The translations under genes and the position numbers were made by a program. This document shows positions 25,499 to 51,000 of a DNA stretch of 64,000 nucleotides, piece after piece. Every line of letters starts with the position of its first letter. The first letter of the stretch is position 1. This DNA is from Nemertoderma westbladi (Eukaryota > Animalia > Xenacoelomorpha), in the NCBI GenBank assembly GCA_032718475.1, contig JAUCBJ010006962.1:151976-215975 (forward strand). Reading direction: 5' to 3'. The notes under the pieces are model-generated. The model was given only the letters and a program-made list of their open reading frames with translations. It did not search any database and had not been told where the DNA came from.

Positions 25499-27266
25499 TC
25501 ATTGCATGAAAATCGGTATCTCATTGTTTATTAGATATCTAATAGCACTTGGAGCGAAAGAGTTTTGAAACATCTTGGTCCGTGTATCAGGCATTCTGTA
25601 ATTATTGCGAGTTGCGGTGGAGTTTGATCGGCAACCAATAATGAAAGCGTGTAGAGGATGACTCGGCGTGTCCACAATCTTCTTTACCATGTTGGTGAAC
25701 TGTTTGGAAAACGCATCATTTATAATGTTCATGTAAACTTGTTTTTCAATTTTTGAGTGTTTGGCAAACAGCGACAGTGGCCTCTTTAACTTCTTTTTGA
25801 GATTCTTTGGAATGAGGGGGACCCACGCAACCGCACAGTACATATATTGTGGTACAATGTAAGTTTCAAAGAGAAATATTTTTGTATCTTTATTTGCAAA
25901 CCGGATGAAAAAACTGAATTGGCGAACTATGTAATTTACCCTTTTTATAAGTTTAAATATATGAGTTTTCCATGATAGATTATTTGCAATCCATATTCCA
26001 AGATGTTTCACTTCGGACGGACGCGGAACCTCGTCACCATCTATGTAGATTATTTCTTCTGCGATATCTAGAACTTTCTGTTCTTTAAAGTTCATTGGAA
26101 TGAAACATAGTTCTTCAGATTTCTTTGCGTTTATCTTTAAGTTTTTTCCATGTGATAGCTCAACAATTCGCTGTATGTTAGACTTATATTTGTCATTTTC
26201 TGCGGAATGCCTTATCGCCTGTAGATTTCTTGAGTCATCAGAATATTTTGCTAGGGATCCATCGTCAGCTCGAATTTCATCAGTGTCTTTGGTAAACAAA
26301 GGTCCACTAAGAGGACCCCCTTGGGGAAAACCAACTTTCAGTGAAATAGAGGAAGATATGTTTTTTCCAGATTTAACCGATTGAGAGAAACCACTCATGT
26401 ATGAGTGAAGCCAGCTGGCCAACCAACGCATCTCTATTGGTAATTCGTCTAAAAGTCTGTTTAAAAACTTGTTTTGTAACACTGTGTTAAAAGCAGATGA
26501 GTAGTCTATGAATAAACATTTTACAATTGTGTGTCTTTCATCTAACGCTTTTGTAATCTGATGAAGGAGGTATAAGATCGCATCAGCTGTAGAATAACCT
26601 TTTTTGTATGCAAATTGAAAAATATCATCAGTGGATTTACTTGCATTACGAAATATATCTAGAGCCAATCTGTCTAAACACCTAGAACTCAAAGGAGTAA
26701 CACATACTGGTCTGAAGCTGGTTTTTTCAGAAAATGATGAATCACATCTTTTAGGTAAGGCAGATGTCAAAGACGAATTCCAACATTGCGGGTATTTTTG
26801 TTGATGGAAACTATCTCTGAATAGTGAAGCATAAGGTATAGAAAGTTCTTTTGCAAAGGTTTTATAGCAAATTGCAGAAACAATGCTACTACCTTGGGCT
26901 GTATTCGGTTTCAATTTACGTATTAATTTCTCAACCACAATCGGATCAACATGAATATCATTATCATAGGTGGTACCATTATATATAGGCTCATCCTTAT
27001 TCACATCCTCGTTAAATCTAGTGAAGAAATTATTAAGACTCTCGACTTCATTTTCATCAAATTTATGAACTTGGTGTTTTTTCCTTATACAGTTATCAGA
27101 TAGTTTGTACAGTTGAGTTTTTGGCATATTGGTGAATTCCATTTGCCGTTTATCAAAGATCAGTTTGTTGATTTTTCTCTGGCACTCATTTCTCTTAACA
27201 TTATCCTTACATGCTATAGCTTTCTTTTTCTCAGCTAGAATGCCTTTAACACCAGGAATAGGTTGA
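25499..27266 (-). CDS. LINE ORF2 reverse transcriptase (partial)
   Basis: FRPVCVT, QFAYKKGYST, IDYSSAFNTV, GFPQGGPLSGPLF, YSDD, KHLGIWI. Confidence 0.9.
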
Positions 27267-28196
27267 AACTTGTTTTTCAATTTTTGAGTGTTTGGCAAAC
27301 AGCGACAGTGGCCTCTTTAACTTCTTTTTGAGATTCTTTGGAATAAGGGGGACCCACGCAACCGCACAGTACATATATTGTGGTACAATGTAAGTTTCAA
27401 AGATAAATATTTTTGTATCTATTTGCAAACCGGATGAAAAAACTGAATTGGCGAACTATGTAATTTACCCTTTTTATAAGTTTAAATATATGAGTTTTCC
27501 ATGATAGATTATTTGCAATCCATATTCCAAGATGTTTCACTTCGGACGGACGCGGAACCTCGTCACCATCTATGTAGATTATTTCTTCTGCGATATCTAG
27601 AACTTTCTGTTCTTTAAAGTTCATTGGAATGAAACATAGTTCTTCAGATTTCTTTGCGTTTATCTTTAAGTTTTTTCCATGTGATAGCTCAACAATTCGC
27701 TGGATGTTAGACTTATATTTGTCATTTTCTGCGGAATGCCTTATCGCCTGTAGATTTCTTGAGTCATCAGAATATTTTGCTAGGGATCCATCGTCAGCTC
27801 GAATTTCATCAGTGTCTTTGGTAAACAAAGGTCCACTAAGAGGACCCCCTTGGGGAAAACCAACTTTCAGTGAAATAGAGGAAGATATGTTTTTTCCAGA
27901 TTTAACCGATTGAGAGATCGGCTCCGATCCAGCTGGCCAACCAACGCATCTCTATTGGTAATTCGTCTAAAAGTCTGTTTAAAAACTTGTCTTGTAACAC
28001 TGTGTTAAAAGCAGATGAGTAGTCTATGAATAAACATTTTACAATTGTGTGTCTTTTATCTAACGCTTTTGTAATCTGATGAAGGAGGTATAAGATCGCA
28101 TCAGCTGTCTAATAACCTTTTTTGTATGCAAATTGAAAAATATCATCAGTCGATTTACTTGCATTACGAAATATATCTAGAGCCCATCTGTCTAAA

Positions 28197-29460
28197 CACG
28201 AAGTGGGGCCTTCGCGCAGCACGTGAAATGAGTTAATGCTAAGTATCAACTCGAAAGGATTATAAAAACATAGGAGAAGATTTTCCCGGAAAACGTTAAC
28301 CCTCTAGCGGGAGACTGGGTAACTGAAGAAGGAAGGATTAGTTTCCCTACAAAGCCACAGCCTATGGTCTATTACATATCTACCAAGTTTCCGATTGACG
28401 GATCATAAATAACGAAATGTTGGAAGGTTTTCACTTTCATACATTTAGCCCTCTAGCGGCATATTAAAGAACTACGGATCGATCACCTTCCTCACAAAGA
28501 CGAGGCATGTGGTCTAGTACATACCGGTACTGTATATTCCAAAATTCAGCTTAAATAGATTAAGATCAAGGAATTCGCGAAGGTTATCACTTTCCTACAT
28601 TTCGCCCTCTAGCGGCAGACTCGAAAACTCCGGACCGATTACTGTCCACACAAAGACTTAGGATGTCTTCTAGTACATATATGACAAGTTTCAGCGTAAT
28701 CAGATCATAAACAACTAAATGGAAGAATAATTTCACATTCGGGACATTTCGCCCTCTAGCGGCAGACTGGAGAACTGCAGACAGATTAGCCTCCTTTGAA
28801 ATTTACAGCTAATGGTCTAGTACATACTTCCCAAGTTTCAGCTTAAACGGATTAAAAGCAAAGAAATGGGTGGCCATTTAATGTTTAGACATGTGGCCCT
28901 CTACCGGCAGACTGGAAAACTTCGGACCGATTACAATCCACACAAAGACTCAGGATGTCATCTAGTACATATATGACAAGTTTCAGCGTAATCAGATCAT
29001 AAACAACTAAATGGAAGAATAATTTCACATTCGGGACATTTCGCCCTCTAGCGGCAGACTGGAGAACTGCAGACAGATTAGCCTCCTTTGAAATTTACAG
29101 CTAATGGTCTAGTACATACTTCCCAAGTTTCAGCTTAAACGGATTAAAAGCAAAGAAATGGGTGGCCATTTAATGTTTAGACATGTGGCCCTCTAGCGGG
29201 AGACCATTGCACTGATGGTGTCTGAAAGTCTCTCAAAAATCTCAACTTTTGCTCATATTGATACCTACAAATTTTCAACTTGGCAGCTTTAAATCCGACA
29301 AAGTTATTAGCATGTCAAAATCGTAACGACGACGACAACGACGACGACGACGACGACGACAACGACGACGACGACGACGACGACAACTATTTGCATAAAT
29401 TGACCCACCCCCTAACAGTGTCAATTCGCTAAGGCTCCGCCAACTTCGTGGCTCGCCCCA
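28197..29460. mobile_element. Helentron-associated (HINE-like) element inserted in the LINE duplicate
   Basis: Interrupts TCTAAA|CACCTAG. Subterminal IR CACGAAGT/ACTTCGTG, ~120 bp internal tandem units (CCCTCTAGCGGCAGACT), (ACG)n microsatellite, terminal hairpin. Confidence 0.75.
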
Positions 29461-31145
29461 CACCTAGAACTCAAAGGAGTAACACATACTGGTCTGAAGC
29501 TGGTTTTTTCAGAAAATGATGAATCACATCTTTTAGGTAAGGCAGATGTCAAAGACGAATTCCAACATTGCGGGTATTTTTGTTGATGGAAACTATCTCT
29601 GTATAGTGAAGCATAAGGTATAGAAAGTTCTTTTGCAAAGGTTTTATAGCAAATTGCAGAAACAATGCTACTACCTTGGTCTGTATTCGGTTTCAATTTA
29701 CGTATTAATTTCTCAACCACAATCGGATCAACATGAATATCATTATCATAGGTGGTACCATTATATATAGGCTCATCCTTATTCACATCCTCGTTAAATC
29801 TAGTGAAGAAATTATTAAGACTCTCGACTTCATTTTCATCAAATTTATGAACTTGTTGTTTTTTCCTTATACAGTTATCAGATAGTTTGTACAGTTGAGT
29901 TTTTGGCATATTGGTAAATTCCATTTGCCGTTTATCAAAGATCAGTTTGTTGATTTTTCTCTGGCACTCATTTCTCTTAACATTATCCTTACATGCTATA
30001 GCTTTCTTTTTCTCAGCTAGAATGCCTTTAACACCAGGAATAGGTTGACGTATGTGAAAGTTATGTACTTTCATCTTAGTTAGAGGTACGTGTTGATCAA
30101 AGATATACTTATATAGCTCTCTGTAGCTTCCACACTTTTATCTAGACTAGTGGTGTCTTGGAAAACATTCCAATTTGTTTCATCAAAAATTAGTTTTACT
30201 TCAGCAATTTTTTCCTCGCTGAAAACACGAGCCTTTTTGTAGCTAGGTTTAGGTTTATATGCATTGCTGCAGTCAATTTTTGGTTGAAGAAAGATAGACT
30301 TATGATCATCCACTCTACCAATAGGAGCTGATGTGGAGCAATGATATGGGTAGGCATCAGTGACATAGGCCACATCTAATTGTGATTCACCCCATTCAAT
30401 TTAATTGTGATTGATGGTGTTATCACCGGTTGTCATGGAAATGGTAAAACAACAAACATGCTGTAGTATTCTAATAACTCGATATAAATTCATCGCATCT
30501 TTTGAAAAAGATAGCTACTGGTCTAACAATTCTAAATGTGACATAAAATTCTGGAATATAATTATTGTTACCATGGGAACGCTGCTAAATAAAAACTGAC
30601 AATGTTTTAGAAAAATAGCTACCATTCTAGAACAATAGAATTATTTTAAAAACAAATTGCCACATTTTATTGAATATTAGTTTTGGAAAATTTTGGTATA
30701 CTATACTGAGAGCTAAACCTGTTTTGTTATAACGGTGATATATGGTTCCAAAGATATACCCAAGTTTGAAATATTTTTATTTTTCATCAATTTAATCTCA
30801 TTCCACTCTGTTTCAAAATAATCGCTTTATATAACAATATTTATGCCAATAAAATACAATCAAGATGTGACTACAAATCACTTTAAAACGACAAGTGACA
30901 TCTAAATGGCATTTCAAATAATACTCCTTCACAGGTTACCATGACTACCACTACAGATGCAATTGAAGATGACTCACATATGACACAAACAAATGACTTG
31001 ACACCTACCACAAAAGAGAGGTTAGTTCTTTTAGTATATTCACTTCAATTTATATATTTATCATAATTTTTCCTAGATGATTTCTGCAAAGATGATATCT
31101 TCGATAATGACATTTTTGAATACTAAATCCTCTTTATTCTTTGGG

Positions 31146-32003
31146 GGGGCGTATTCCCAAAACTTACACTAGTAGGAAAAAAATCATGTAAGGATTGGAG
31201 ATAGAGGTCGAACTAGTGTAAGAGTTTTATACTCAGTTTGCAGGTACAGTAGACCCAAAGTACGTGTTCCAAACGCTGTAAGGAACGGAGAAATTGGGTG
31301 AAATCATGTAAGGGTTATTACACCAACAGTATTAGATGAGTAGACTTAACATTTGATATTATTCTAGGCAGTAGAACATTGGGTTATGGTTTATACAGGG
31401 CTGCATGAGCTGCCCCCACACATAAGGACCACACTGCGCACAATATTGTGCTTTGGCAGCACCATAGAGAAAATAAGCATGATGGACAGCCCATGACTTT
31501 CTTAAGATGCCTCCTAAAGGACACTGGCTTTGAAGATGCAGCTAATCTCGCGAAAGTCATGGGGGATAGGGAATTGTGGCGGTGCAACTTTGTTGGTTGA
31601 TAAGCCGGTATAGAATTCTTAATGTACGCTGCATTTGGCTTGCCGATTGCGGATTGCATGGTTGTGGCAAAATACATTTGCCAAGCTGGCATAGCATCTC
31701 GATGTGCAGTTTCAATGCAACAGGCCGATTTTAGTACTGTACAGCAGTAATTGCTTATGAATAGTCTGTCTGCTATTCGTGTGCATCGAACTGCACTAGC
31801 GCGCCATCTAGACATCTAGAGGTTTTAAGAGTTTATTTTATTTGGAGCCTTTGGAGCACTTTATAAAAACCTTACACTAGTTCGACCCCTCTTTCCATTC
31901 CTTACATGATTTCAACGTCCAATCAAATAATAACTCATTAACCAATCCCAGGTGTTAATGCAAGATGTGTTCCTAGTAGTGTAAGGATTGGGAATACGCG
32001 CCC
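31146..32003. mobile_element. MITE-like element with TIRs GGGCGTATTCCCAA...TTGGGAATACGCGCCC
   Basis: 31146-31230 is mirrored at 31865-32003. Confidence 0.55.
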
Positions 32004-32770
32004 GGTTTATTTTGTAATTAGTCCGTATCTTTGAGTGAGGTTTGTTTGGAACACCGAGATTTCGTGACTTTTCCTAAAATTTAATGGGTTATCCAACAGC
32101 GCAAACGCCATTTACATGGCCATGTTAGTTTTCGTGCTGTGCTCCCTTTATGGCACCCATCTCCAGTACTTTCCTATTAAGATTTTCAATAGTTTTCATA
32201 ATTCACTAAAATTAATTTATTTGCGATATATAGCGGTTTTTTTGGATGCTGAAAGCGATTATAGAACTGCAACATTACATTCGTGAAATTTTTTGGTAAT
32301 TTTTAAAGTGTAACCTGGGGTACGAATAAAACAAGTACTGCAAATGTTAGTCAAAAATCACGTCAAGAGCTTCAGTTCATTCAAATTTCGCCTCCTTCCT
32401 GTTGGTACATGACTTTAATTTGCACAACTCAATGCAATGATGTTGATGTTTGTTTTGAAGGCAGATACAGAGTGAGTACAAAACAAAGACTCAACATCCA
32501 ATTATAAAGACCTGCATAATCATCTAACATGTGTTAACTTTCGTTTATTGTTTTGGTTCCCCCAAAACGCCTCAGTAACGTGTTCCTTTACTAACCTGCT
32601 CCTTTAAATAGCAATGGGACTTATTGCTCTTATGGACCTAGCGCGACTTCACCTCTTTGTTTTGTACAGAACAGGCAGTAAAGTCTTGGATCTTTGTTTT
32701 GTACTCAACTGGCAGATACATGTTGGTGGTTTACAATTGCAATACAGCAGAGATAGAGAGTGAGGATAGA

Positions 32771-33237
32771 TTATGGAGCTGGTAGAATATGCATCCAATC
32801 AGGTATTACCATATCCTCCTCATCTAACAGCCATCTTATGGGAGAAGATACATTGATGATGGGTACTACTAGGCTTATATACGATTGGTAGTTGGTTCTG
32901 GCTGGATAGGTGTCTATCTTTAAACAATATTTACAAAGTGGCAGCAAGGTTGACTCGATTTCTCCATGTTTTGAACAGAAAAGACGATACCGAAGCTCGT
33001 TCACGTCATTAACTTCTGACATTCATGTAAAGCAATAAGTATTATGCATAAGTCAGGTCCAAGATTAGCTGATATAGTGTTTATGTTATAATGCGTTATT
33101 CTACTTAGAGATCCACACTTTTGATAAACCTGGCATTTCAGGACATCGTTTTCAGCCCTTGTAATGTATTTGAGAGGCATTGATTTGTGTCCATTTATTG
33201 CCGGCACCCTCATTATCATATCGAATATGAATGTCAC
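32771..33237 (-). pseudogene. Degenerate fragment of the same CXC-associated transposon gene family
   Basis: LGPDLCIILIALH...VNELRYRLFC...LLPLC...ARTNYQS...W...DWM..LPAP corresponds to the region preceding the CXC cluster at 11458. Confidence 0.5.
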
Positions 33238-35568
33238 ATACTTGATCTAGTCTTTGACGTTTGCTATTGGATACACCACCCCCCCCCCCCCCCCCCCCCA
33301 CCACCCCTTTCAGTGAAACCTGCCTCTGCACTGATGTCTATATTATTCTTAACCTTCCAACATATGTTAATCATTCATCATTGGCGAACATTGGCAACTA
33401 TCAGAATCGTATCTAGAGAGATGGGGAGGATAATGATAATACCTGATTGGCCTACAAAATAAACTTCATTGCATTGAGTTGTAAAAATTCAAGTAATGCA
33501 CCAAATGGAAGCATGAGGAATTGGAATGAACTGATGCAATGATGAATAATGATGAATCAGATGATGAAGATGATTTCTAATACAGCAATAATTGTATCAC
33601 ATACATTACCTCCTCGACTAAGAATACTCGATTTGTTCGGATGACATCATCGCATACCAATTAAGAATACGTACATACATAATTATGTATTTATTATTAA
33701 TTAAAGATAATTTAGTGTACAAAAATGTTATTATCGATTGTGCGCAGTATGGTCCTTATGTGTGGGGGCAGCTCATGCAGCCCTGTATAAACCATATCCC
33801 AATGTTCTACTGCCTAGAATAATATCAAATGTTAAGTCTACTCATCTAATACTGTTTGTGTAATAACCCTTACATGATTTCACCCAATTTCTCCATTCCT
33901 TACAGCGTTTGGAACACGTACTTTGGGTCTACTGTACCTGCAAACTGAGTATAAAACTCTTACACTAGTTCGACCTCTATCTCCATTCCTTACATGATTT
34001 TTTTCCTACTAGTGTAAGTTTTGGGAATACGCCCCCCCAAAGAATAAAGAGGATTTAGTATTCAAAAATGTCATTATCGAAGGTATCATCTTTGCATAAA
34101 TCATCTAGGAAAAATTATGATAAATATATAAATTGAAGTGAATATACTAAAAGAACTAACCTCTCTTTTGTGGTAGGTGTCACGTCATTTGTTTTTGTCA
34201 TATCTGAGTCATCTTCAATTGCATCTGTAGTGGTAGTCATGGTAACCTGTGAAGGAGTGTTGTCTAAAATGCCATTTAGATGTCACTTGTCATTTTAAAG
34301 TGATTTGTAGTCACATCTTGATTGTATTTTATTGGCATAAATATTGTTATATAAAGTCATTATTTTGAAACAGAGTGGAATGAGATTAAATTGATGAAAA
34401 ATAAAAATATTTCAAACATGGGTATATCTTTGGAACCATATATCACCGTTATAACAAAACAGGTTTAGCTCTCAGTATAACAAAATTTTCCAAAACTAAT
34501 AATCAATAAAATGTGGTAATTTGTTTTTAAAATAATGGTTTTGTTCTAGAATAGTAGCTATTTTTGTAAAACATGTCAGTTTTTATTTAGCAGCGTTCCC
34601 ATGGTAACAATAGTTATATTCCAGAATTTTATGTCACATTTAGAATTGTTAGACCAGTAGCTATCTTTTTCAAAAGATGCGATGAATTTATATCGAGTTA
34701 TTAGAATACTACAGCATGATTGTTTTTTTACCATTTCCATGACAACCGGTGATAACACCAAGTCAGCTACCGATTCAGATTTGTTATCATATCAAAATGA
34801 ATGGCCAGAAGCTTGGTCTTCCCAAAACTATAAGTTCCGGGTGGTTACCAAAAAGTATCCCCTATGCTGGCTGGCCCATGGACTAAATGACATTTTCATG
34901 TCAATGAAAAAAAATTCCATATCAGAAACTATGAGTATATCAATTTTCTATAGAACAAGTCCCATTTAAATGCAGAGACCTGGAAACTCAGTAGCTATTC
35001 CATGAAGAAAACACTAAATGTGATGCCTAACTCATTGATAAATCATAGGCCTAACTAATGATCAATAACGAATAATCATCATTAGTTATGAATTCCAAAC
35101 CCCATTCTCCATATCGAAATGGTCACCCAAGATAAAGTACTGTAGTACCCAGCTCAAAATGTGATATATTATAAATATTATTATATATATCGTACGTTGG
35201 AACATAGGAACATACTATACTGTAAAGTAGAATCCACTCTAATCTACTTTGCTAAGGTACTTTATGCACTTTATCTGTACTATACCTTACGGTATCGATT
35301 TATGAATACGGGTATAATAAAATAAGACGCACAATACAGTAGAAAGGAGCTAAACTGGAAATAACAAATATCTTAGAAACATCACCTAAATGTTATAATC
35401 GCTGAAATTTGTTGTCTTTAATAAATATGTTAGCACTCAAACGTGTCAGGTTAGGAAATAAATATCAGCCCAATTTAGATTCTTTACCTTGTCTAACGTT
35501 ACAGAAAGGCCACGCTAATAAAATAAACATAATTTAACAAACTTTGGTGCATATTTTGTAACTCATGG

Positions 35569-37835
35569 TGTTACGGTATATGGCGCTGTATCCACATTGT
35601 TCGCCGTTGTACTGTATACACGACATTGGTTATTATGCAGTACACATTATTAGCCATTATACAGTATAATATATTAGTCCGTTATACTGTACGCAATATT
35701 AGTCCGTCATGCAGTATAATTATTTAGATAAGACATAATAGCGCAGTGACATTTAGATAAGGAAATTGAAACGCCCATATATTTTGAACTCATCCGTTTT
35801 GTTATAGTATGTAGCCCTACCTAGGTAATTTTGTAATATGATATAAGTAGATAGTTCCAGGGTAGCAAGTTCAGTTGGACCCTGGATTTCGGGCTTGCTG
35901 TTATTAGCCTTGATGGGCTAGCTATCACGGGTTTGATTTCTTTATAATCGCGCTAAATTAACTTTTGTGCATCATGTTATTAGTGCCACTAAATTAAGCA
36001 TCGGCAAAATTACCTTATATGGTGACGTTTTGTGGGTTTGGGGAGCAATAGGGCTACAATCCGGCTTTCTTATTGGACTAACTGCTTCCAGGTTGGTCTA
36101 ATGCTAGCGCGGATTGGAGAGCCAATGAGAGAGCGATTGCATCACCCTTCTCGGATCACCTATAAATTGGCGGTTTGCCGGTAGAGCGGTATCTATCTGT
36201 ATATATTCCCCACACAGCAACAACAGCAGCAACTCACTCAGACATATTTAGTGCCATTAAGTTTAGGAGTATAATTTGTGTGTATTTTCTGCATTTCTAC
36301 CTTTTGATTAATTTTCTTGAAATGATTCGTTAGTGCTACTATTCTCACTTGTGTTTCTCAATCAATCCCAACGATTACTGCTAATTACAATCGGAACTAT
36401 GATTTCTACCTCTTTTGTTAATGGTTCTATGTAATTGTTTTCGACGCAATAATCCTACGGGATTTTCTGAAACTGTCAGACTTGTGATTTGCATGCGCCG
36501 CTACGGTAGCTACTCATTCTGATGGAGGGCTAAGGTGCCGGTAGGCGGTGGGCGCATCGGGGGGTTAGCGACGAAGGGAGTGCGGAGGATTCAAGGGCGA
36601 GCAACGTTGGCGGGGAGTCACCGTTGCGGTCGGGCAACTTGTGCTGTAGCGTAGAGACCGCTCGCTGGTACGGTAATTAGGGGGCTGATGATCCAGGTTT
36701 TGTCTCTATTTTAGCATTAGGGGGGCAGGAATTGGGTTAGTTAGGAAGCCTAGATGTACCCGGGAGAGGCCTGTACGTACTACAGTGTGGAGAGTGAATT
36801 GCACAACTGTGGACTACACAGTAGTGAACTGCATAATTGCGAGCTATGATTGCTGACGCTGATTGGTGTGTTACTGAAGTGTGCCTAAGATTACGAATGC
36901 TTAGATAGGCGCCCTTTTTCTCTTTGATTGATTTCTATTTCTTAGTTTACAACAAATAATTACTGATTAGGTCAAAGTAATACGGTATTTTAGGCTATTA
37001 CTAGTGAAACCTGGTGTGTAATAAATTAGAATTGCGCATTCTGGAACTCTTAGTAATTAGTACGCTGTTACATATTTGTGACTGTAATTAGTTAGTGAAA
37101 TTAAGAATTAGTACGCAGCATAGCGGAGAGTAGCTAAGGTAATAATTAGGATACCGTAAACTATTCACGCTGAGCGGTTATTTGCATTAGCGGGCAATAA
37201 GCTAGATCGCATTATTCAGTACTCAAAACACTAGTAATTTGCTGGCCTAAAGCCAGCTACAGGCAAATTTAGACCCAGAGCGGTATTACGCACGTAAAGA
37301 CATTGTACTGTACCAATTTTGATTATTTTAAATATTCTCGCATTCACACATTCCGTTAGGGAACCCCCAGTATTCGCGATTAGAAAGAACTTAGGCATTA
37401 TCGTATTACAGTAGTAGAATTAGGCGTAAGAATATACTCTGAGTGCAAAGCCTCTCGCACTCGTCTTAAGTAAGCTTAGGGAGCCGACTCGGGTTTATTG
37501 TTTTGGTTATTCCCGCGTGGCTCATAGATTCGAACAGTTAGCTCTCTGTCGAGCGATCGGTAGAGAAAGGAACAAGCGTTTTTGCAGGAGCCGTGTAAAT
37601 TTAGTAAAATATATTAGCGGACGGCAGATTAGCGCCATCCAACGGTAAGTAGCGGTTTTGTATTTAGCAGCCCTACATTTAGTAATATCACGCTCCTGAT
37701 CACCTTTATTTAACAGTAGAGCAGTCTTGGTGCCTTATTGGTTAGGCGGGAACTCATTAGGTTGGCAGAGAAGTATACGGGTATTTGTCTGTTCAACAGT
37801 TCTGCTGTTAGTATAGGGGTCGCGCTAGTTTAACA
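35569..37835 (+). repeat. 5' LTR of element B (~2.27 kb)
   Basis: TGTTACGG...TTTAACA. Repeated at 52259-52963 and in LTR A. Confidence 0.95.
36111..36166 (+). promoter_or_regulatory. Candidate LTR promoter (ATTGG/CCAAT boxes and TATAAA)
   Basis: GGATTGG at 36111, GCCAATG at 36121, TATAAA at 36161-36166. Confidence 0.5.
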
Positions 37836-37845
37836 GTAGTACGTA
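37836..37845 (+). promoter_or_regulatory. Non-tRNA primer-binding position of B, complementary to LTR 36774-36783
   Basis: GTAGTACGTA versus TACGTACTAC. Confidence 0.65.
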
Positions 37846-38929
37846 GTTATTGTCTGCTGTAGGCCTACCGCGTACAGTAGGACACTGAGTATATTCTTAG
37901 GCTGTTAGTTTAGATTACTGTATTCACTGGTCGCGTACAATAGTACAGTAGTACATTAGGCTGATTGCTGTTACTGCGTACGGTAGAAGGGACATTTGTT
38001 TTGCCGTACCACACACAGTATCATTAGGCTGTTAGGTTGGTGTACTGTTTACTTACTGTACTGCATACGGTGGATGTACGGTAGTGCGTTTTTACTAATT
38101 GCGAATACAGCAGTTCCTTAGGCCTTAGGGCGAATTGTAATTAGTAAGTTTTTTGAAATTTTTAGCTAGGTTTGCGAGAATTCAGTTTCGGTCAAAATTA
38201 TTTGTAAAATCTAGAGTTTTGTACCGGTATGTTAGGTAACCGCTTAGTTATTTTATACCATCTGGAGATACATGGCAAGACGGAACTTCTGAGTTTGGGG
38301 TTCGTGTGGGTCTGCGGGTTCGGTTTGCAATCAGCGAAGGGACTGAAACTTTGGACACGGACGTGGAATCTCACAGCAAACAAGGTTGGTTGTTCTGTTG
38401 GTACCATTGTGTTTGTGGAAGCAGTAAAAAATTACCGGTTGTTTAACTGCGAAACTGAACTCAATTTATTAGTTAGGTTAGTTAGGTTTAGCCGGCCATG
38501 GTTTTTTGAATCGCTCAAGTTAGAGAGAGAGTTAGAGAGAGTCGCAACCCGAAGATGTAGCCACGCGCTAGTGGATACATATAATATTTGAAATTAAAAT
38601 TGCATTGATTAGAGCTATATATGCAAAATTGGAATTATTTGGGTGGCAAATTCATTCTGAATATTTTGTATTAGATTCAGAAATTATTTTGTGTCATACC
38701 GGTATTTAATTGCTATAATAGCTATATAATAATATTTTGTTTAAATATTGTGCTAGTATTTGCTATAACTATACCTTATTAAATTCACAATATTGCATTG
38801 CGAATTTATTTTGACATTTTGGACCAACTAATTATTAGACAAATAATTTGACCGAATTTCGGTTAAATTATAATTATATCTCGAAATTTTGCGAGATATT
38901 TTGCCGGAAGGCAAAACATTATTTAGACT

Positions 38930-41368
38930 ATGAGTGTCTCAGACAAGGAGGCACTAGAGGACAGCTATGAGAAGGCGGCTGGACCGCCGACTGACGATAG
39001 CGTTAATATTACTGTTGACGACAATGCCGACTATGACGACGCAGCGAGCGATGCTGACGTAAGTGAACAGGAGGACGAGACAGTAACTAGTGAGGAAGAA
39101 CAACAACCTCAAGTAATAGTATTAGGATCCCCTACCGCTACTGTAAGGAAGGATTGTACAGCAACCCAACCAGAGGTGAGTGATAGGGAGGGTAGTGTAG
39201 CAGAAGCGAGAGCCCGGAGCCCGGTTTCCAGACCTGTGGGTATGGTAAGTGCCGTGGTCCCAGCGGCTGTTAGGAGTACCCGTAGTTCCCGAAACAATCC
39301 TTCAAGTCCACCAAGTGTGAGTCAGGTAAGCGAGAGAGAACTTGACATCGCGATAAAGAAGAAACTTCGCGCGCATGCCGGACATATAACTCGGACAACG
39401 GACAAGGTAAGGAAGATGTTAGCTGACGCAGGTAACATCGGAAGGGAAGGGTTAGTAGAGATTAGAAAGGGATATAACTCAGCGTTATTTAAGCAGACGG
39501 AGGAGCTTGCAGTCCTAGCGAAGAGAGCAGTGGAGTCTCAGTCGAGCGACGTGGCGACGAGGGTTTATGATAGGGTTTTAGCAGCCCTGTTGGAGCACCT
39601 CGCTTTATCGGAGCGATTCCGACGAGTTAGGACGGAAAACTGGCTGCTATGGGCATCACAAGCGCAGGCGAATCAGGTGAGTGACGCAGAGTTGAGAGAT
39701 TTAGAGGAGCGAGAAGAAATCCAAGATAAGGAAGAGCGCCGTTATCAGAGGGAAGTTACTAGCTGGCTGATGCAGAGCGGAGTGGTGGTACCAGGCCAGG
39801 TGCTACCGACGACGGAGAACATCCAACAGAGGACTTTGACTCCACCCGACGACGCATCCAGAGACAGTGGTGATTCTCAGGTTAGTCACGCGCGAGGGAA
39901 GGTTATATGTGCTAGATCCCTTGTTTCTCACAACTCGGCGGAAGAGAGAAGACTCCGACTGGACGAACAACAGGCTGAAGTTTTGCGTGAATCGGAAGCA
40001 CGGAAGGAAGCCGAACGGGAACGGGAGCGCACACGTAAGTTAGACGCGAAGTTGCGCGAGTTGGAAGAAAAGGGTAAGCGTGAGCGAGCGGAACGCGAAC
40101 AGAAGGAACGCGAACTCCAACTCGAACGCGAACGCAAGGAACGCGAACTCCAACTCGAACGCGAACGCAAGGAACGCGAACTCCAGCTCGAATGCGAACA
40201 GAAAGAACGCGAACTCCAGCTCGAACGCGAACAGAAGAAACGCGAACTCGAACTTGAACGCGAACGCAAGGAACGCAAACTTGAGATCGAGAAAGAGCGA
40301 CAAGCGTTGTATGAAGAGAAGGCGCGTGTGGAAGAAGAGAGTGCAGCGAGACGAGCGAGGGAAGAAGAAGAACGTAAACTGGCACAGTTGGAAAGTGCGA
40401 GATTAAATTTAGAGAGCGAAGAACGGTCCAGGAAGGCGAATGAAATCGCCGAGAAAGGGATGCGAATGATCGAAGAATGTGGGGCGAGTGTAGGGACTGA
40501 GTTGCGAGAACTGTTTGCACTGCAGAAGGCCGAACAGGAAGCGAGAACTCCGACCATACGCGAGTCGACGACGACCAGAATTCCTATACCCGGTCCAGCT
40601 ATTACGAGTACACGGATCGCTAAACCGTTTTCTACATATCGCACGCCAGTTGGTATTAGTGCTTCACCCATCGCGCAGAATCCACGTCATCAGAACACCG
40701 CACCACTACATACTGAACGAGACGATGAAGAGTTTAGAGGAGAAACTCCGACGGGCCGAGTATTTGGCGAACCGAACCCGCGGGTTTGGAATATGCGGAC
40801 GGAACGCCGACCCAGTTCGACGGAGAACTTCCGGGTTAAACCGGAAGAGGGATCATATGAGAGACAGCGGATTACTCAGATAGAGCCGACTATACAACAG
40901 AACCCTAGCCAGGAATTTATTACGAGGGATGAGTTAAGTGCTAGTCTAGCGCAAGCTATATCACCGCACATCCAACCTATAACGGACATGCTTAGTAACC
41001 TACAGTTAAAGGAAGCAACCCAGGTAAGAAGTAATTCAAATCCTAGCAGGCCTGAGTTAGATAAAGTCCAACCTAGTCAACGAGTACGTATATCAGAGGC
41101 AACTATACATAGACCTCAGGTAAGGACGCCTGTCCCGACTATCCATAATCCCAATTTCGAAAATTCGGCAGAAAAGTTTATTCAGGAAGCTTGGGTCAGG
41201 GCTTTGGCGCGCAAACCAACGCGAGCGCTAAGGACTGACACAGAATCAAGTGATGAAGAGGAAGAAATGAGACGTCAGAAGTCCCAAAACTATAAGGAAA
41301 GAAGGACCGACGCGGAGCAGGTAAGTTGGAACCACCGGGAAAGGACCAGACTTAACAACCCTGCGTAA
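38930..41368 (+). CDS. gag: Gag N-terminal region (acidic N-terminus, long coiled coil); in frame with the downstream gag-pol
   Basis: 812 aa with ERERKERELQL repeats. A single in-frame TAA separates it from 41378. Confidence 0.8.
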   Translation: MSVSDKEALEDSYEKAAGPPTDDSVNITVDDNADYDDAASDADVSEQEDETVTSEEEQQPQVIVLGSPTATVRKDCTATQPEVSDREGSVAEARARSPVSRPVGMVSAVVPAAVRSTRSSRNNPSSPPSVSQVSERELDIAIKKKLRAHAGHITRTTDKVRKMLADAGNIGREGLVEIRKGYNSALFKQTEELAVLAKRAVESQSSDVATRVYDRVLAALLEHLALSERFRRVRTENWLLWASQAQANQVSDAELRDLEEREEIQDKEERRYQREVTSWLMQSGVVVPGQVLPTTENIQQRTLTPPDDASRDSGDSQVSHARGKVICARSLVSHNSAEERRLRLDEQQAEVLRESEARKEAERERERTRKLDAKLRELEEKGKRERAEREQKERELQLERERKERELQLERERKERELQLECEQKERELQLEREQKKRELELERERKERKLEIEKERQALYEEKARVEEESAARRAREEEERKLAQLESARLNLESEERSRKANEIAEKGMRMIEECGASVGTELRELFALQKAEQEARTPTIRESTTTRIPIPGPAITSTRIAKPFSTYRTPVGISASPIAQNPRHQNTAPLHTERDDEEFRGETPTGRVFGEPNPRVWNMRTERRPSSTENFRVKPEEGSYERQRITQIEPTIQQNPSQEFITRDELSASLAQAISPHIQPITDMLSNLQLKEATQVRSNSNPSRPELDKVQPSQRVRISEATIHRPQVRTPVPTIHNPNFENSAEKFIQEAWVRALARKPTRALRTDTESSDEEEEMRRQKSQNYKERRTDAEQVSWNHRERTRLNNPA
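40090..40290 (+). repeat. 33-bp coding tandem repeat (ERERKERELQL) x ~5-6
   Basis: GAACGCGAACTCCAACTCGAACGCGAACGCAAG units. Confidence 0.9.
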
Positions 41369-41377
41369 CTAAACCAT

Positions 41378-44300
41378 TTGTTAACCCTGAACGACGCAAC
41401 CCTTAGGGACATAGGTAAGTTTGCTGCTAGGCAAGGACTGCCAACGCAACAACCCCAGAAGTTTATGGGTAACCACAAGCACTGGAGGACATTCAAAACC
41501 TATGTCGACGAGCAGCTAACCAACAGCACCTTTACTCCCAACGAGAAGTTCAACTATTTGCTTCAGATGCTCCATCGAGAACCTAGAGCCATTGCTGACA
41601 ACTTCGTCGGCAATGAAAGGGCATTTGAGTTGGCAATGAAGACACTTAGCGACATCTACGGGAATAAAACCAAGATGGCACAGTCAATAGTAGAAGACTT
41701 GGGTAAGGGCGGAAGGATTACAACTCCGTTAGAGCTGTTGAACTTAGTGAACGCTATTTCGAACGCATTGGACATCTTGAAGACGGTGAATCTACCTCAT
41801 CATGGTGATCACGCCGAAGTTTTAAAGAGCGTAATAAGACGTTTAAACATGCGTTACAGACAGAAATGGCACAAATTAGAGAATAAGTTGGAGGGTCAAG
41901 GTAAGGTGTTGACACTTCAGCATATTCATGACATGATAGCCACAGACGCAGTAGCAGAGATGAAATCAAACTTCTCAGAGGAGAATATGAGGGAGTCTAA
42001 ACCTGTTACCGGTAAGTCTATGGTAAGTTTTGACGATGACAGGACCACTGTGACATTTAACTCAGTAGACAGATATAATTCGAGTACCCCAGCCTTTAGA
42101 TCAGACTCGCGAGTATGGTCAGGTGAGCGGTTAGATAGACCTAGGTTAAAGCAACAGGAGTTGCCGGGTGGATTTGTAGGTTGCCAATACTGTTTACTAA
42201 AGGAGGTAAGATCTGACGACCATAAGTTAGATAGTTGCAGACGGTTCAAAGAATTAAATTCGGAACAGAGAAGAGTTCAAGTGCGGACGTTGGACACCTG
42301 TTGGGCATGTCTTGCGCCAGGTCATGTACGGCGGCAGTGCCCGAACAGCAAGGACGGATGCATGGAATGCGGCATACTACATCACAAGTTGCTACATGCG
42401 GATTTCCACACCCCAACGGACCGTTACTTACAGCGAAATCCTCACAGGAAGGGGAGCAAAGAACCCGTATCGATAAGGAGAAATACGTTCACCGGCATTC
42501 AGGACGATGGTTATCAACCAGGTTCGTCGGATGAGGATGGCGAGTCGAGCGCAAGAGAGGTGACCTGCCAAGGTTTCACTGCGGATAGTTCATCGACCAG
42601 CGCACGGACGTATTTATCATCGGCCACGTCGGAAATATTTAGCGTGACTCCGGTGAAACTTACTGGAGATAAGGGATCGAAACGAATATATGTGATGTTG
42701 GACACTGCGTCCACATTATCTTATATCGACGAAGAAGTGGCGAGAGCCGTTTCTAGCTTCCAGGACGCCGAGGAAATCCAAATAGAGTTAAAGTCTATGC
42801 ACGGGGTAGGTGACCTCAAGGGACACAGGATATCTGTAGAACTAGATTCCCTACTGCCGAGAGACCAGCATACTCGACAAGAACGAAGAGCCCTGCCATT
42901 AGACGGATTCAAGTGTCTAGCTATGAAGGGATTCGGCAGGCAGTTAGGTAAGGTGCCGCCGATGAGTCCCATAGCACAGGAGTATTTTGACAAGCTCAGG
43001 ATACCCAGACACCAGGTAGGTTATAGGATTGTTTCTATGTTGATTGGTGCAGAACAGCTGATCGCACACCAGATATGGGAAACGAGACCAGCTGAGCCGC
43101 ATGTCAATGGACCACATGCCCATAGGACTATACTAGGTTGGTATACAAGAGTACCCATGTCTTATGAGTTTACAGGTGGCGACAAGCCAATAGATAGATA
43201 CGACGAATTACAGCCAATAACTCAACCACCGTTAGTAGAACCACCAGACATAGACGAGTTTAGGAGAACCTGTATTGACCATTATAGTGACTTTAGCGAG
43301 TCGGACGAGGAGTTGATTCCCGATAATGTTAGGTTGTCGGAACCACTTCACAACGACCGGGCAGATAGTGAACCCGAGGACTACTGTTATCAGTCCCGTG
43401 GGTCTGGTTCAGCGGCCCACGCTACCTATTTGAGTAACGTTTTGACTTATACCAACATAGTGGAGGGTCAAGTGGCTAAATATCGAGACCTAGACATTTT
43501 CCAATACTGTGAGGAGGAATTGCAGAAGGAATTGATACGCCAGGACCTCGAGACAGGAGCCAGAACCGTCGAATGGCTGGATAGGGACGCAATGGAACCC
43601 GGTGGATATGACCTAACCATGTCTACTGACGAGAAGCGGTCACTGGAGATGATGGAAGACACCATACGTCTGCTGCCGACTGGACATTTTGAAGTTGGAA
43701 TGTTGTGGCGTCGACAACCTCCTAAGTTGGAGAACAACTACAACTTAGCCTTGAAAGGATTGAACGGAGTAAGGGCTTGGTTGTTAAGGAATCCGGACAT
43801 TAGGGAGAAGTATTGCGCTCAGATAAACAACTATTTTGCCAAGGGATTTGCTGGGAAGGTAGAGGACCCTGACTTAGTGACAGACCAGACTTATTACATC
43901 CCACACCACTATGTGACTCACCCTGACAAGCCAGACAAAGTCCGAGTAGTCAACGACTGCGCAGCAGTCTATAGAGGTATGTCCCTGAATTCAGAGTTGA
44001 TGGATGGTCCCAACCTGAACAATTATTTGATTGGAATACTGTTACGTTTTAGACAGCAGCGATTCGCATTTACTTGTGACATCGAGGCGATGTTCCACCA
44101 GGTAAGAGCCTGTAAGGCAGACCAGGATAGCCTTCGATTTCTCTGGTACGAGAATGAAGACTTATCCGGCCCAGTGGTTACATACCAGATGTACGTTAGG
44201 ATATTTGGTGCCCGCGATAGTCCAAATGGCACGCTGTTTGTTCTAAAGAAAACGGCAACAGCCCAGATTGGTAAGTATCCAGTAGAAGTCATCGAGTCCA

Positions 44301-47285
44301 TCTTGAGAAACTTCTATATGGACGACGGATTGGTGTCCAAGGACACAGCGGAACAAGCCATAGAAGTGGCTCACGGCCTACAGGAGTGCTTGGCTACAGG
44401 GGGATTTCCTCTGACCAAGTTCACTACGAACTCGGAGGCCCTATTAGAGTCGTTCCCGGTAAAAGATCGCGGGAGCGGAGACATTGAATTGGGGGTAGAA
44501 CCAATCCCCATGGCGCTAGTACTGGGACTCGCTTGGAATCCGAACACAGACAAGTTCCAGGTAAGAGTTAGATTTGAGCCCAGTAGCCCAGACAAAGTTT
44601 TGACTAAGAGAATTTGCTTATCGACATTGAGTAGACTATTTCACCCGATGAACTTTATCAGTCCGGTAATATTACAGGCACGAGCGTGCATGAAGAAAAT
44701 TTGGTTGTCCGACCTAGAGTGGGACGAACCAATATCTCCTATACATGCAAAGCAGTGGAGAGAGTGGGAAGCCGAGTTACATCTATTGAAAAACATAGAT
44801 GTACCCCGCTCCTACTTTCCGAATCAGCTGGTATTCCCAGCTGATCTCGAACTCCACCTATTTAGTGACGCAAGTGACACCGGCTTTGGCATGGTAGCCT
44901 ACCTTCGCCGAGAGGTAAGTCAGGACAAGTTTGAAACGGCTTTTGTGACTTCTAGATCAAAGACAATGCCGGTCAAATACATAACTGTCCCTCGTGCAGA
45001 GTTACAGGCGGCAGTAGTTTCAGTCGAGGTAAGTAAGCAGATAATTGAGGAATTAGACACAACATTGACCTTATTCTATTGGACGGACGCATCCTTAGTG
45101 TTAGTATACATTGCGGCCGACAATATTGCACTAAAGACATTTGTGGCCAACAGACGCACTCAGATCGTCGATTTTTCGACGAAGGAACAATGGAGACATT
45201 TACCGGGAGTGTTGAACCCGGCCGACATAACTTCGAGAGGTGCAATGCCGGCGGAATTCTGTCAGGAAGAGTCGCAGGAGTTTTGGTTGCATGGACCTGA
45301 TTTTCTAACAAGGACACAGGAACATTGGCCAGAGCGACTAAAGATAGTGACCAATCCGATGCCTGAAGATGCTGGAGGTGGAGAAAGTCTCTAAGTCCAA
45401 GTCTAAAGCCAAACTCAAGTCATTGGAGCGGCCTGAAGAGTCATTGGAGCGGCCTGAAGAGTCATTGGAGCGGCCCGGAGACCTGTCAGACCAACAGACT
45501 TACGTGACTACTAGGTCCGGAAGGGTAAGTTATGACGTAAAACCACCCTTACAGACTAAACCAGGGTCACGGTTGGTAAGTGACAGACAGAAAATGACCG
45601 ACACAATGGAGCCTTTGGTTTCCAAACCTGCGGGTTTGGATTCGAAACCTCCATCAATTAGCGGACAACCGTCGCTGGCATTAGAGCCATGTAGTATTTA
45701 TGACAAATTACTAAATTCGTCTGCCTCTTGGCTGACAATTTGTAAAAGAACTGCGTGGTTAAGCCAATACATTTCGTACCTTTGTATAAAACATTTGATA
45801 CATTTGGGAGAACAGACGAGCGCTAATAGTGAGTGAATTCGGAAATTGAAACAACCTCTGACAGAGGATGAGATTGATCAAGCGGAATTAAAGCATTTGA
45901 AGCACTATCAAATGTGTGCCTTCCCCAAAGAATTCCATCTATTATCGGCTCAACGACCAGTTCTCTATAAACCCCTTAGAAAATGGAGTCCATTAATCCA
46001 TAAGGGTTTAATTTGTCATAGATCGAGAATCCAGACTGTCGATATAAATTCACAGTTTCGGTTCCCAGTGATAATCCCTAGTCACCCAATAGAATTGCAA
46101 AGAGCGATTCTATGGGATATACACAAGAGGTTGCATCACGCGGGAAAGTTACACTGTTTGTCGGCAGCGAGACAGCGATTCATTCTATTGCAGCCAAGCA
46201 GGGCAGTAGGTACTATGTATGACGCCTGTCTGGTTTGCAAGAGGGTGAACGCCAGAGTATTGGAACAGGAGATGGCTGAACTCCCGGAAGCGAGAGTGCA
46301 GGCATATGACCCACCCTTTACAAAAACAGGGGTGGATTGTTTTGGTCCGATTGAGGCAAAGAGTGGATGGCTGACCCACAAGCGATGGGGTCTGCTACTG
46401 ACATGTATGGCTAGTAGAGCCATACATATTGAGCGTGTGGCAGACATGTCGACCAAATCTCTGCTCCTGGCCTTGAAGAGATTTATGGCCAGTAGAGGAC
46501 TAGTAAAGGCGTTCTACTCCGACGAGGGTACAAACTTTGTCGGGGGGAATAGCGAGTTAAACGCGGCTCATAGGGCGGCGCAGAATAAAGAAATTTCTGC
46601 AGCACTTTTGCCGCAGAGAATAGAATGGAGATTTAATACTCCAGAAAGTCCTTGGAGAGGAGGAAGTTGGGAGCGTTTGGTTCGCTCTGTAAAGCAGGCC
46701 ATTGCCAAGACGTTGCCTGTAAATAAACAACTTACCGACGACGAACTGGTCACAGCTTTCATTGAAATCGAGCATACCCTAAACTCGAGGCCGATAGCTA
46801 TGTTGCCAGACGGTGTTGCATTAACGCCGAATCATTTGCTAATGCAGAGTCCAGCATTTCTTGTGCCGGCATCAGAACCCATTAGTGCCGACCTATATAG
46901 TTGTAAGAGCTGGAAAATAACTCAATTTGTCACGTACACATTCTGGGAATATTGGCGGGAATACTATCTTCCCACCATATCTACCAGAACAAAGTGGTAC
47001 AAAACGGTTCGGAGTCTCCAAAGGGGAGATTACGTATTGATAACCGAGCCGATTGTCAAGAGAAAGTACTGGGAGACGGGAGTTATCTTGCACATACACC
47101 CAGACGTGCAAAACATAGTGCACACAGTCACTGTGAAAATTAGGTGCAAGTGTCCGCACCCAAAAAAGTGTAAAACTAATGGTTTACACACCTTGGACCG
47201 ACCGGTCCAAGATATCGTGTTATTAGAGGAGACACGCATCGAGACGGGAGATTATAATTTGTCTCCTGCCTCAAATAAAAATTAG
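41378..47285 (+). pseudogene. pol: BEL/Pao Gag-Pol (capsid region, three Zn fingers, protease, RT, RNase H, integrase) with a frameshift at ~45372 and a stop at 45834
   Basis: KFMGNHKHWRTF, CWACLAPGHVRRQC, CMECGILHHKLLH, MLDTAST, DIEAMFHQV, FYMDD, FSDASD, VPRAEL, DDE integrase. Confidence 0.95.
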
Positions 47286-48052
47286 TGTTGGATGCAACTC
47301 ACTTCGTATGCATTCCTCGTATGCAAATACTAGGAAATGCACAGGAGCGGGTTTGCGGTGATTTGCGTGAGAATTTGTCTGGTGGGTATCAAAACAAAAT
47401 TTTATTTTCAAAATTTTCAAAATTAGAAAATTTTAAAAAAAATTAGAAGTGAACCCAAGACAATTCCAGACGCTGTGTATAGACGCGTTTTAGAATTCGT
47501 CTATAGATATACAGTAATTTGAAAAGTCGTGAAGCCTGGAAAATAGCATTTAGAAACCATGGTGACGGCTATATTACGTAGGAGTGTAAATTGAGTTTAG
47601 CAACTTCCACAGATTGGTGCCAACAGTACAACTAGGGTGCTAAAGGTTAGTAGCATCAGGGCGTACACGGACCCCACTCAGTAGTTTGCAGTCAAGTGAG
47701 ATGTATGTTCGATTATCAAACCTGTGGGTTTGGTATAGTCGAACATTAAGACTATTGTCCTTTCTAACTACTGTAGTTTAGTACGAGTAATAGGAGTAGT
47801 TTGGGAATCAAAAAGTGAGTTGGTCACGGCCAGTTTATCTCCAAAGTTTTGCGCTATGCATGGGAATAGGTTGGAGGATAGTTAGGAATGAGACGGGATC
47901 TAGAGAGTCAAACCTGAACTGCTGTAAGGCGGGGGGGGGGGGGGGGGGGTTCAAGAGGTCTGTCCTTCGGCGACATCTAACTGATTTACCCACAGTGTAA
48001 TTAGTTACGTAATGGCACTTATTGGAATATATATGTATATACGCGGCGCATA

Positions 48053-51000
48053 ATGGAGAAGGAAATTAGAGCGCAACCGCGGAGAGGATTTACTGCTAGA
48101 GAGGAGGCGGAGTTACCATTCGGGCGACCGGGATGTAAAGATTCGAACGTTTACTACCATGGGAGGTCAGTGATGGAGCTAAATGGAAGGTATAAACCCG
48201 CGTATGATAAGGAGCTAAGGAGGGAAAGAATGAGAGCGTTGGGGGACCGTATGGAAGTTTTGCGGAGAGAGTATCGCACTCGGTATCCCTACGATTTCGC
48301 TTTAGACGTATGTGACATTAGTGCAGACCCGGATGAGGAGATCGCGCGGCTGTACCATATGAACATGTATTTACGATATGAAGAACCTCTACCTGCAGTC
48401 CGAGACCAGTTCGACGGAATGCATCTGTACAGGAGGAATCGAGGCGAGGATCAGGAGACGCCGAAAATCTTCAGCGTGTACAAGCTGTTTTACAAGTGTG
48501 GTGAATGCATGAACAAACAAGACGTGGCGATTCCCGACCGGCTGGACGAGCAACATCCTGAACCGATATTAACGCGATGTCAAGCTCACCAGTTCCTTAG
48601 ATATAACGAGGGAGGTTACCCAATGAGCAACCCGATGATCAGTATCGACTTCAGCGGAAAGCGACCTCCATGACCCATTACGCCGACCGTTATAACATTA
48701 GATCCGTATACGGAGATTAAACCCTGTTCGACACCCAGTTTGATAGAGACGGCAGCGGCCATTTCGCTGTACCGAGCCTATAAGGATCTAGAGGCGCGGC
48801 GCGAAGCAGCACGGGACTCGGGTACCAAACCCGCGGGTTTGGAGCTCTCGAGTCCCTGGACTACGTTTACTTCGCCTCACCGAGCGAGAAGCCTCACTCC
48901 TGAGCATCAGGACGACATAGACGCGTTGCGGCAGGAGGAGAGAGCGGCGAAGGCGAAAGAGTTATTCGAGAAGCGGATAGCGGAGTATAATAAGACCGCG
49001 GATAGACATCAAGAGGAGACTAGGAGAGTGACCGGATTTGTTCCACAGGCCGTATCTCAACCCCGACCGGTGTATTATTCCGACGGCAACGAACCTGCGA
49101 TATTGGTAGATCATCCGGAGTCGCGAGAAGCGATAAGATTCTTGCCGATGGTAAGGATGCCGGATCATTGGAACGTTGACTGTCTACGGGAAGTTTTATG
49201 CGCGAAGTTCTTGCGTGATGTCCCGATGCAGATCACGGATTATGACACACTGGACAAGATTGGAGCTCCGGAGAAGGAGAGCAAATTGTTTGGATGGTTA
49301 GATAAGTACATCAAAGTATGGGTCGCGGTGGCTACATTCCCAGACGACGAGGAGGTAGACCAGACGTGGCTGAGGAGGAAGGGTTCTTACACCCGATATG
49401 ATGACCACAAGGCTATCGAGCGCATGTGGACCCCATCAGACGAGATTCAGCGTCAGTGGAGGAAAACGGAGGAATCACTGCAGGATTGGAGGGTGATGTT
49501 CTACAACAATGAAGGAGGGTCCCATCAAGAATGTTTGACTAGCAAGTGCATTCAATCGCGCAGCCGATGGTGTGACTCATGTGTTTATGCGCGTGAGGGC
49601 GGATCGAGAGAGACCGGAGCCCATCATAACGACACAATATCGGAAGGGGAAGGATCCTAGGGAACAGATTTTGGAGGTATGCAGGCGAGGAGGTATGCAC
49701 GGAGCGGAGCGTATCGACGCCAGGATGCTACCCAAGAAGGTTAGAGAGGCTATTCTCAACCAAGATTACGTCAAGGTGGGATCAGGAGTCCAGAGCGATT
49801 TGGAGAGTGACTTCAACGCCATGACTGATTTGGAAGATAGATTGCCGAGACCGTTTGTCGTCACCAAGCTATTGTTGCTATGGGCTGGGCACAGCATATT
49901 GGAATTTATAGGGAGTATCCCAACTCTGCCAAGACTGGTATGGGCTTTATAGCACATTTGTTGTATAATTGGGACTTTAAGTTAAAGACGCAGAAGAAGT
50001 ACGAGGAGGCGTATGGTGAATACAACACGCCACTGGGAGCGGAGTTCAAATCCCACTTCAAGCGGCAAGCGTTAGTGTATTGGAACATTTGCGCGCCACC
50101 CCGTGCGTCGCTACAATATTATTTGGTGCTTGAGTCGAACACGGTAACTTGTTTATTAGCGGATATCGTTGCGCGAGTTTTGAAGCGTCATCCATTGGTA
50201 TTCGGAGGAGATCAATACATTCGCTCGAAAGGGGGAATCCAATCCGACGTGATGAAGCGTTTCTTAACCCCGTTCTTCAACCAATCGTTAGAAAATACGT
50301 CGATGGTTAGGAGAGGATTAGCGATATTCGAAGGAGTATATCGACAGAACATCGGAGATTTGGGAGACCGACCGTCGATGGAGTATCCGACGCCAGAGGC
50401 CTTGGAGAAGTGGTTCGGGAATCAAACCCGCGGGTTTGGTACTCTCTTCCACTCGGAGGCTGATAGACCCGTTAAGGAGGGTTGGCCGGAGACGTTAGTA
50501 GAGGTGTTCGGAGTAGATCTTCCGGTGGAGAAGACATATCCGAAACGAACGCGGGAGGAAATATTGGAGATAGAGGACAAGGGCGAGGATGTTTACTTTG
50601 TTCCGGATCGACAACTGCTGACTGGAGAGGACGACATCGTATTAGACATTGGGAAAGAATGAAGTGCGAAACCGATTGGAGACCTCATATACGAGAGGGC
50701 CTGGTTTCCACAAGCGCAGGTGTAAGTTGTGCGGCAGCACAAGGCACAATCAAAAATCGTGCGACGCGGTAGTAGAGGCGGCGCATAAGGTCTGCCTTTT
50801 GGTGCAATGAGACCGACCATTCGTTTCATACATGCACCGTCTTCATTTCTCAATGCGGATACTGTGGGGTAAAGGGACATCGCAGCGCGAGATGTCAGCT
50901 GCGAGATGATTCCTTCCAAAACCACAGCGCTAACCTACTTCGGGAGATGCTAGATAAGTGGGAGGGTGTGACCGACTACCACATCCAAGCGCAGATGCGT

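Follow-up and report, generated by a model that had tools for sequence, protein, structure and literature searches.

In the Tf1/sushi group of Ty3/gypsy elements, the LTR RNA of an element pairs with about 11 nt beside its own 5′ LTR, and Tf1 takes its initial 11 bases, which RNase H cuts off, as the primer for reverse transcription, as set out in the portions covered here of three papers (PMC7175516, PMC4600332, PMC5341516). Self-priming has also been predicted for Tcn1 (Ty3/gypsy) and TAR/Houba/Osr-1 (Ty1/copia), the criterion being at least 10 bp of complementarity beginning 0–5 nt after the LTR; unlike the element described below, these belong to plant and fungal lineages, and the sections covered of the paper concerned mention no splice-joint primer (PMC6317226). 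For BEL/Pao elements, the ICTV profile of the Belpaoviridae gives an 18-nt primer-binding site (PBS) for tRNA-Arg or tRNA-Gly, LTRs of 0.2–1.2 kb and genomes of 4.2–10 kb, and describes replication as poorly understood; the start of reverse transcription, tRNA-primed according to the profile, is assumed rather than measured (PMC8742986). The literature searched, with subscription journals, Repbase and GyDB entries and supplements outside its scope, held no report of BEL/Pao self-priming. A term search of three papers returned no mention of a PBS or tRNA (PMC3118150, PMC554778, PMC6238403), and the parts covered of four others contain none of BEL/Pao self-priming (PMC3601003, PMC5443660, PMC8220671, PMC13524379).

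The window, the whole 64-kb stretch of Nemertoderma westbladi DNA that was analysed, contains three BEL/Pao elements, A, B and C. Element B is laid out as follows:

35569–37835, plus strand: 5′ LTR of B, 2,267 nt, TGTT...AACA
36200–36205, plus strand: TATA-like box by sequence, a candidate only, in both LTRs of B
36774–36783, plus strand: candidate self-primer segment, exact complement of the PBS, presumably within R
37020–37025, plus strand: the only AATAAA of the B LTR, putative poly(A) signal
37836–37845, plus strand: PBS of B, adjoining the LTR end, without TGG
38927–47285, plus strand: gag-pol of B, with DUF1759, RT with YMDD, Peptidase_A17, Integrase_H2C2 and DUF5641
48005–51762, plus strand: extra reading frames 3′ of the integrase, about 4 kb
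52248–52258, plus strand: polypurine tract of B, ending GGAGCGG
52259–52963, plus strand: first 705 nt of the 3′ LTR of B, with element C inserted at 52964

Element B is a member of BEL/Pao (Belpaoviridae), with a DUF1759 Gag, a Pao RT/RNase H region and an integrase placed after RNase H, and the TG...CA LTR ends and polypurine tract expected of the group are present; the GGAGCGG ending of the tract is common to A, B and C. Its closest protein relatives, at 38–42% identity, all carry PF05380, and the named hosts of the best of them are cnidarians, echinoderms, hemichordates, nemerteans, a mussel and a spider, while no relatives were found among viral contigs. Element B hence agrees with the ICTV description in domain content and order, LTR termini, polypurine tract and animal-type relatives, but departs from it in the absence of a tRNA-type PBS, in its 2.27-kb LTR and in a total size of about 19 kb, twice the range given (PMC8742986). 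The 5′ LTR and the 3′ LTR fragment are 97.6% identical over 708 nt, and gag-pol is decayed: stops interrupt it at 41366 and 45834, and the reading frame shifts near 45351–45394. The post-integrase frames have no Pfam or Atlas match, and an env identity was rejected on that ground and for want of any hydrophobic or membrane-spanning stretch; the last of them carries, by eye, a zinc-knuckle-like Cys/His motif pair, and copy A has a counterpart of these frames at 2965–5792. Towards its 3′ side, the B LTR has strong GTAAG donors (37426, 37470 and 37645), candidates for producing a spliced message to the extra frames. Elsewhere in the window there are a 3,081-nt tandem duplication within 14850–21018, a rearranged RVT_1-bearing element at 25502–30137, and an inverted repeat pair at 30415–34760 (1,030 nt, 96.6%), which may bound a DNA transposon.

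A preliminary description of this locus had proposed that the 10 nt following the LTR of B are exactly complementary to 36774–36783, and the sequence bears this out: that segment, reverse-complemented, reads exactly as positions +1 to +10, and pairing from +1 takes in 10 of 10 letters. The LTR end at 37835, which the same description had placed there with no TGG after it, is set independently by copy A, whose 3′ LTR match stops after AACA at 10319, and by a fall in public-contig depth at that point, so that a misplaced LTR end can be ruled out. A PBS of the kind listed by ICTV for tRNA-Arg or tRNA-Gly is lacking in both B and C, where the first TGG after the LTR end comes at +93 and +236, respectively. 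ARAGORN finds no tRNA genes in the window. An Rfam scan gave nothing for the B LTR and leader and two chance matches near C, and detected in these regions no known ribozyme or tRNA-like unit able to make a cut.

The 10-mer has just two exact matches in the window, a number reached in none of 100 shuffles. The Markov expectation for the match is 0.001–0.003 (orders 0–3), close to the chance of about 0.002 first estimated, and 35 of 14,405 internal positions (0.2%) attain a 10-nt LTR match. The background within the leader of B is higher: 10 of the first 300 positions (3%) do as well, falling into about five distinct matches that include one of 13 nt. Because of these, the match in B, taken alone and with freedom of offset, is suggestive and not convincing. 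That B by itself is just modestly unlikely would suit priming by a host RNA fragment (a tRNA half, an snRNA or an rRNA end) with the LTR match arising by chance, and half-tRNA priming is known in Ty1/copia lineages, according to the sections covered of PMC6317226. Half-tRNA priming would be expected to leave a constant PBS. Other origins for a primer at the segment were discarded: a splice-joint primer brings no gain over the contiguous match in B or C; a transcript 3′ end would lack a poly(A) signal just upstream in both; and for a free 5′ exon or intron end, the segment is followed by AG and then GT in B and A, and by neither in C.

Element C, a minus-strand, gag-bearing element without an RT match, interrupts the 3′ LTR of B and belongs to a second family:

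52964–54157, minus strand: 3′ LTR of C, 1,194 nt, TGTA...AACA
53705–53716, minus strand: 12-nt candidate self-primer of C, as it stands in the 3′ LTR
63644–63655, minus strand: PBS of C, adjoining the 5′ LTR end at 63656, without TGG

The PBS of C is unlike that of B, and is an exact complement, 12 of 12 from +1, of positions 442–453 of its own LTR (53716–53705). The segment was taken from the 3′ LTR, its 5′ LTR copy lying beyond the window, and the two LTRs are 99.4% identical over the comparable 349 nt. A 12-nt match has an expectation of about 2e-4 and is attained at 3 of 9,478 positions, one of them the PBS itself; in swapped combinations of PBS and LTR, the match extends to just 4–6 nt. 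Judged from sequence, C thus appears to be an independent replicate, in another family, of a self-complementary PBS. The long leader of C also contains a 287-nt tandem duplication (62756–63320, 89%).

Copy A is a sister of B (90–95% identical) that spans 1–10319 and lacks its 5′ end, and it allows the segment to be compared within one family:

8350–10319, plus strand: 3′ LTR of copy A, about 90% identical to B, without the equivalent of B 36082–36335
9227–9236, plus strand: copy A version of the primer segment, 5 of 10 letters different from B
36786–36835, plus strand: stretch where B and A diverge most (31%, with about 93% in the surroundings), immediately 3′ of the primer segment

The five differences inside the segment stand against a single one among the 30 flanking letters, and both versions of the divergent stretch fold into local hairpins. 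The PBS of copy A lies outside the window, and its segment therefore predicts a PBS form. Contigs from four public runs (at most three samples) were placed on 37770–37900, where the LTR end is constant and the PBS variable, depth dropping across +1 to +10 and recovering in the leader; several insertion and loose-end PBS forms occur, with 19 of the 39 loose ends listed. A form placed before 37846, which X1, X2 and X3 each show at a single contig end, is by eye complementary to the A segment at 9 of 10 letters, including all five A/B differences; a hand estimate puts the chance of this, (1/4)^5 times about six forms seen, near 0.006. Another, behind 37839 (X1, two contigs, agreement 0.73), also matches at 9 of 10, including four of the differences. 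Furthermore, most listed forms have A at +4, pairing with the T that makes up nearly all contig depth at 36780 (5,520/5,520; 13,953/14,595; 7,719/7,719); B has instead C at 36780 and G at +4. Covariation between PBS and LTR, which the preliminary description had put forward as a check, is hence seen as matched segment and PBS forms in public contigs, but these contigs are shorter than 250 nt and the variants are unphased, never linked on one molecule. The PBS thus varies among copies of one family as well as among families, where a half-tRNA would be expected to leave a constant site.

After 36786–36835, the part of the LTR in which B and A diverge most is 37386–37435 (68%), with its A counterpart at 9882–9895. 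The B version can pair with the B PBS (8 pairs, one G-U) and adds a stem to the LTR end; the A version is complementary from +2 to a third PBS form in the contigs, a match that by hand estimate is within chance for a free search. This stretch is a possible decoy or alternative partner of the PBS.

An alignment of 39 RT-bearing proteins led to 80 metagenome and 8 genome-bin loci, the latter probably host DNA in bacterial bins. Among the latter, L082–L086 are complete BEL/Pao elements with near-identical LTRs, and their contigs probably represent host-animal contamination. LTR ends were called by self-comparison, giving 19 calls, of which 14 were kept and five dropped: L009 (the same as L010) and, on inspection, L034, L062, L068 and a second L082 call, which had cut or non-LTR ends; L007 had no polypurine tract call and was left out of the match test. 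Twelve of the 14 relatives, representing about nine families, show a 10–15 nt match to the LTR of the same element, L070 (TGG at +6) and L086 being the two that do not. Only L061 and L082 have contiguous matches like those of B and C; the other 10 match solely across a GTRAG..YAG joint (donor GTAAGT in six of them), and their pairing partner therefore exists only in RNA. Controls scored in this way give 6 matches among 232 cross-family pairs and 2 among 160 shifted windows. These figures are to be read with the order of the analysis in mind: a first pass, in which joints were tried at offset 0 alone, yielded L059 and no other, the 0–5 nt offset was taken over afterwards from the published criterion (PMC6317226), and the donor filter was set after donors had been seen. 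All 14 hits (the 12 relatives, B and C) have at least 10 nt of complementarity within that offset.

The 14 hits share a common register and form. Each match starts 0–4 nt from the LTR end, all pairing is exact Watson-Crick without G-U, and all segments lie upstream of AATAAA wherever one exists. The segments end in AC (nine), ACT (two), AT (two) or AA (one), and the next letter is C in 11 of 14. Between L083 and L084 the last three letters of exon 1 differ, and the matching PBS letters differ likewise. As a separate observation, the segments of L044, L046, L079, L030, L082, L083 and L084 end like TTCGAAC or TTGAAC, with CA next in three cases, recalling a tRNA T-loop followed by CCA. In a quick tree B sits on a long branch of unsure place, joined to another long branch and about 40% from its relatives, which may therefore differ from it in mechanism; the labels show no clustering on the tree, 150 of 500 and 500 of 500 shuffles being equally low. 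The internal self-primer first proposed from B has hence gained support from a second family, matched changes and most of the relatives, and the picture is wider than in that proposal, as most relatives would need splicing.

These comparisons bear on two explanations in which the LTR match plays no part in priming. With each PBS matching its own LTR and not those of others, priming by a host RNA fragment becomes very improbable. Inverted-repeat correction or conversion at the DNA level could also have made the match, since nowhere in the LTR and leader is variation greater than at the two places, and the leader is internally repetitive; the places are 1,050 nt apart, however, their register is locked to the LTR end, and the 10 relatives that match solely after intron removal have matches that DNA templating cannot have produced, leaving this origin scarcely plausible for the set.

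RNA folding gives the segment no advantage. In folds of 36230–37900 and 36700–37900 the helix between segment and PBS has a probability of about 0.001 or less, and its duplex energy of −15.1 kcal/mol is ordinary against random 15-mers (median −13.5). The fold prefers instead a local hairpin or a second partner, picked by the minimum-energy structure:

37402–37409, plus strand: weaker second PBS partner, 8 pairs, one G-U

By itself this partner is not above chance (hand estimate), and as a primer it was rejected both for this reason and for its position downstream of the only AATAAA, where a cut would leave no R. A search for an extended helix of the Tf1 type beside the primer site found only broken pairing. 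With the helix unfavoured in the fold, a chaperone, a partner RNA or a short separate transcript would therefore be needed. Alternative fold partners of the PBS, together with the resemblance of the variable 37386–37435 region to PBS complements, could also indicate that the pairing is real and selected yet serves as a structural switch (in packaging, dimerisation, translation or the sensing of splice state), with a different RNA as primer. This reading is unlikely: exact pairing at 0–4 nt from the LTR end in 14 of 14 hits is what a copied primer would give, and neither B nor C, with TGG so far into the leader, offers an alternative primer site.

The complements are exact, sit in register with the LTR end, and differ between families and copies with matched (unphased) changes. 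On this sequence evidence, the explanation that probably holds for B and its relatives is that an RNA segment from their own R region, cut out internally, serves instead of a tRNA as the primer for reverse transcription. The transcript of B would start near 36230 and be polyadenylated near 37040, placing the segment inside R, some 90–550 nt from the cap and upstream of the poly(A) signal. The preliminary description had a candidate TATA about 600 nt upstream of the segment; TATA-like boxes do lie 613 nt (36161) and 574 nt upstream, but the first is altered in the 3′ LTR of B and copy A has neither. In C, a TATA-like box lies 118 nt upstream of the segment. At 36684–36714, B has a branch-point-like word, a pyrimidine tract and an AG 59 nt before the segment, all kept in copy A, and no strong donor was found upstream of them in B; speculatively, an intron there would shorten the distance between segment and presumed cap to about 90 nt, as in C.

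In the self-primer model, the Gag nucleocapsid would anneal to the PBS a segment supplied by the same RNA, a dimer partner RNA or a short LTR-only transcript, and RT RNase H would cut after 36783, as in Tf1, to leave a 3′-OH. RT would then extend over about 1,050 nt until it reaches the cut, forming the strong-stop DNA of B, and the strand jump would use the roughly 250 nt of R that remain. In retroviral replication, the primer is copied into the next PBS at plus-strand synthesis. Here, the last bases of the primer would likewise be copied into the new PBS in each cycle, so that the match would stay exact while both sites change quickly. The segment would, in most relatives, span an exon–exon joint, with B and C as the intron-free form; one LTR copy would have to escape splicing in joint-primed elements because the intron would otherwise be lost. 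Intron loss may account for B, C, L061 and L082, or they may represent an older state. The primer could also be self-derived through host small-RNA processing (piRNA or siRNA) or transcript termination instead of RT RNase H, a rather unlikely variant that shares the core claim and overlaps with the explanation preferred here. The very high copy number of the family, the freedom of a short internal primer from a long 5′ tail and the want of a convincing Tf1-like extended helix at the site speak for it. Against it, neither B nor C has an AATAAA shortly before the segment, and segments end mostly in AC or AT across distant hosts, which suits an element-encoded cut.

Like Tf1 and Tf2 of Schizosaccharomyces pombe, Tj1 of S. 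japonicus and the Tf1/sushi group, element B lacks a tRNA PBS and has a PBS complementary to its own LTR, to the extent that the portions covered of the sources describe these systems (PMC7175516, PMC4600332, PMC5341516). Its BEL/Pao domains set it apart from the Ty3/gypsy chromovirus ancestry of that group; in contrast with the primer of Tf1, its segment may be internal, a placement hinted at by the TATA-like boxes that lie upstream at 574–613 nt in B and at 118 nt in C, and in most of its relatives the segment would be spliced. Element B is likely to work in principle like Tf1, an internal and often spliced segment being the difference. The broader proposition, that much of BEL/Pao has dropped tRNA priming for a third mode, an internal R-region primer, often splice-assembled, with an AC-type cut and a PBS rewritten each cycle, is evenly balanced between true and false. 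If true, self-priming would reach a third LTR superfamily, and the replication of these elements would be tied to host splicing. It would also give a reason for the quick turnover of the PBS inside one family, and account for the failure of tRNA-based PBS finders to pick up such elements. Primer and PBS would then drift together as a private lock and key between BEL/Pao subfamilies.
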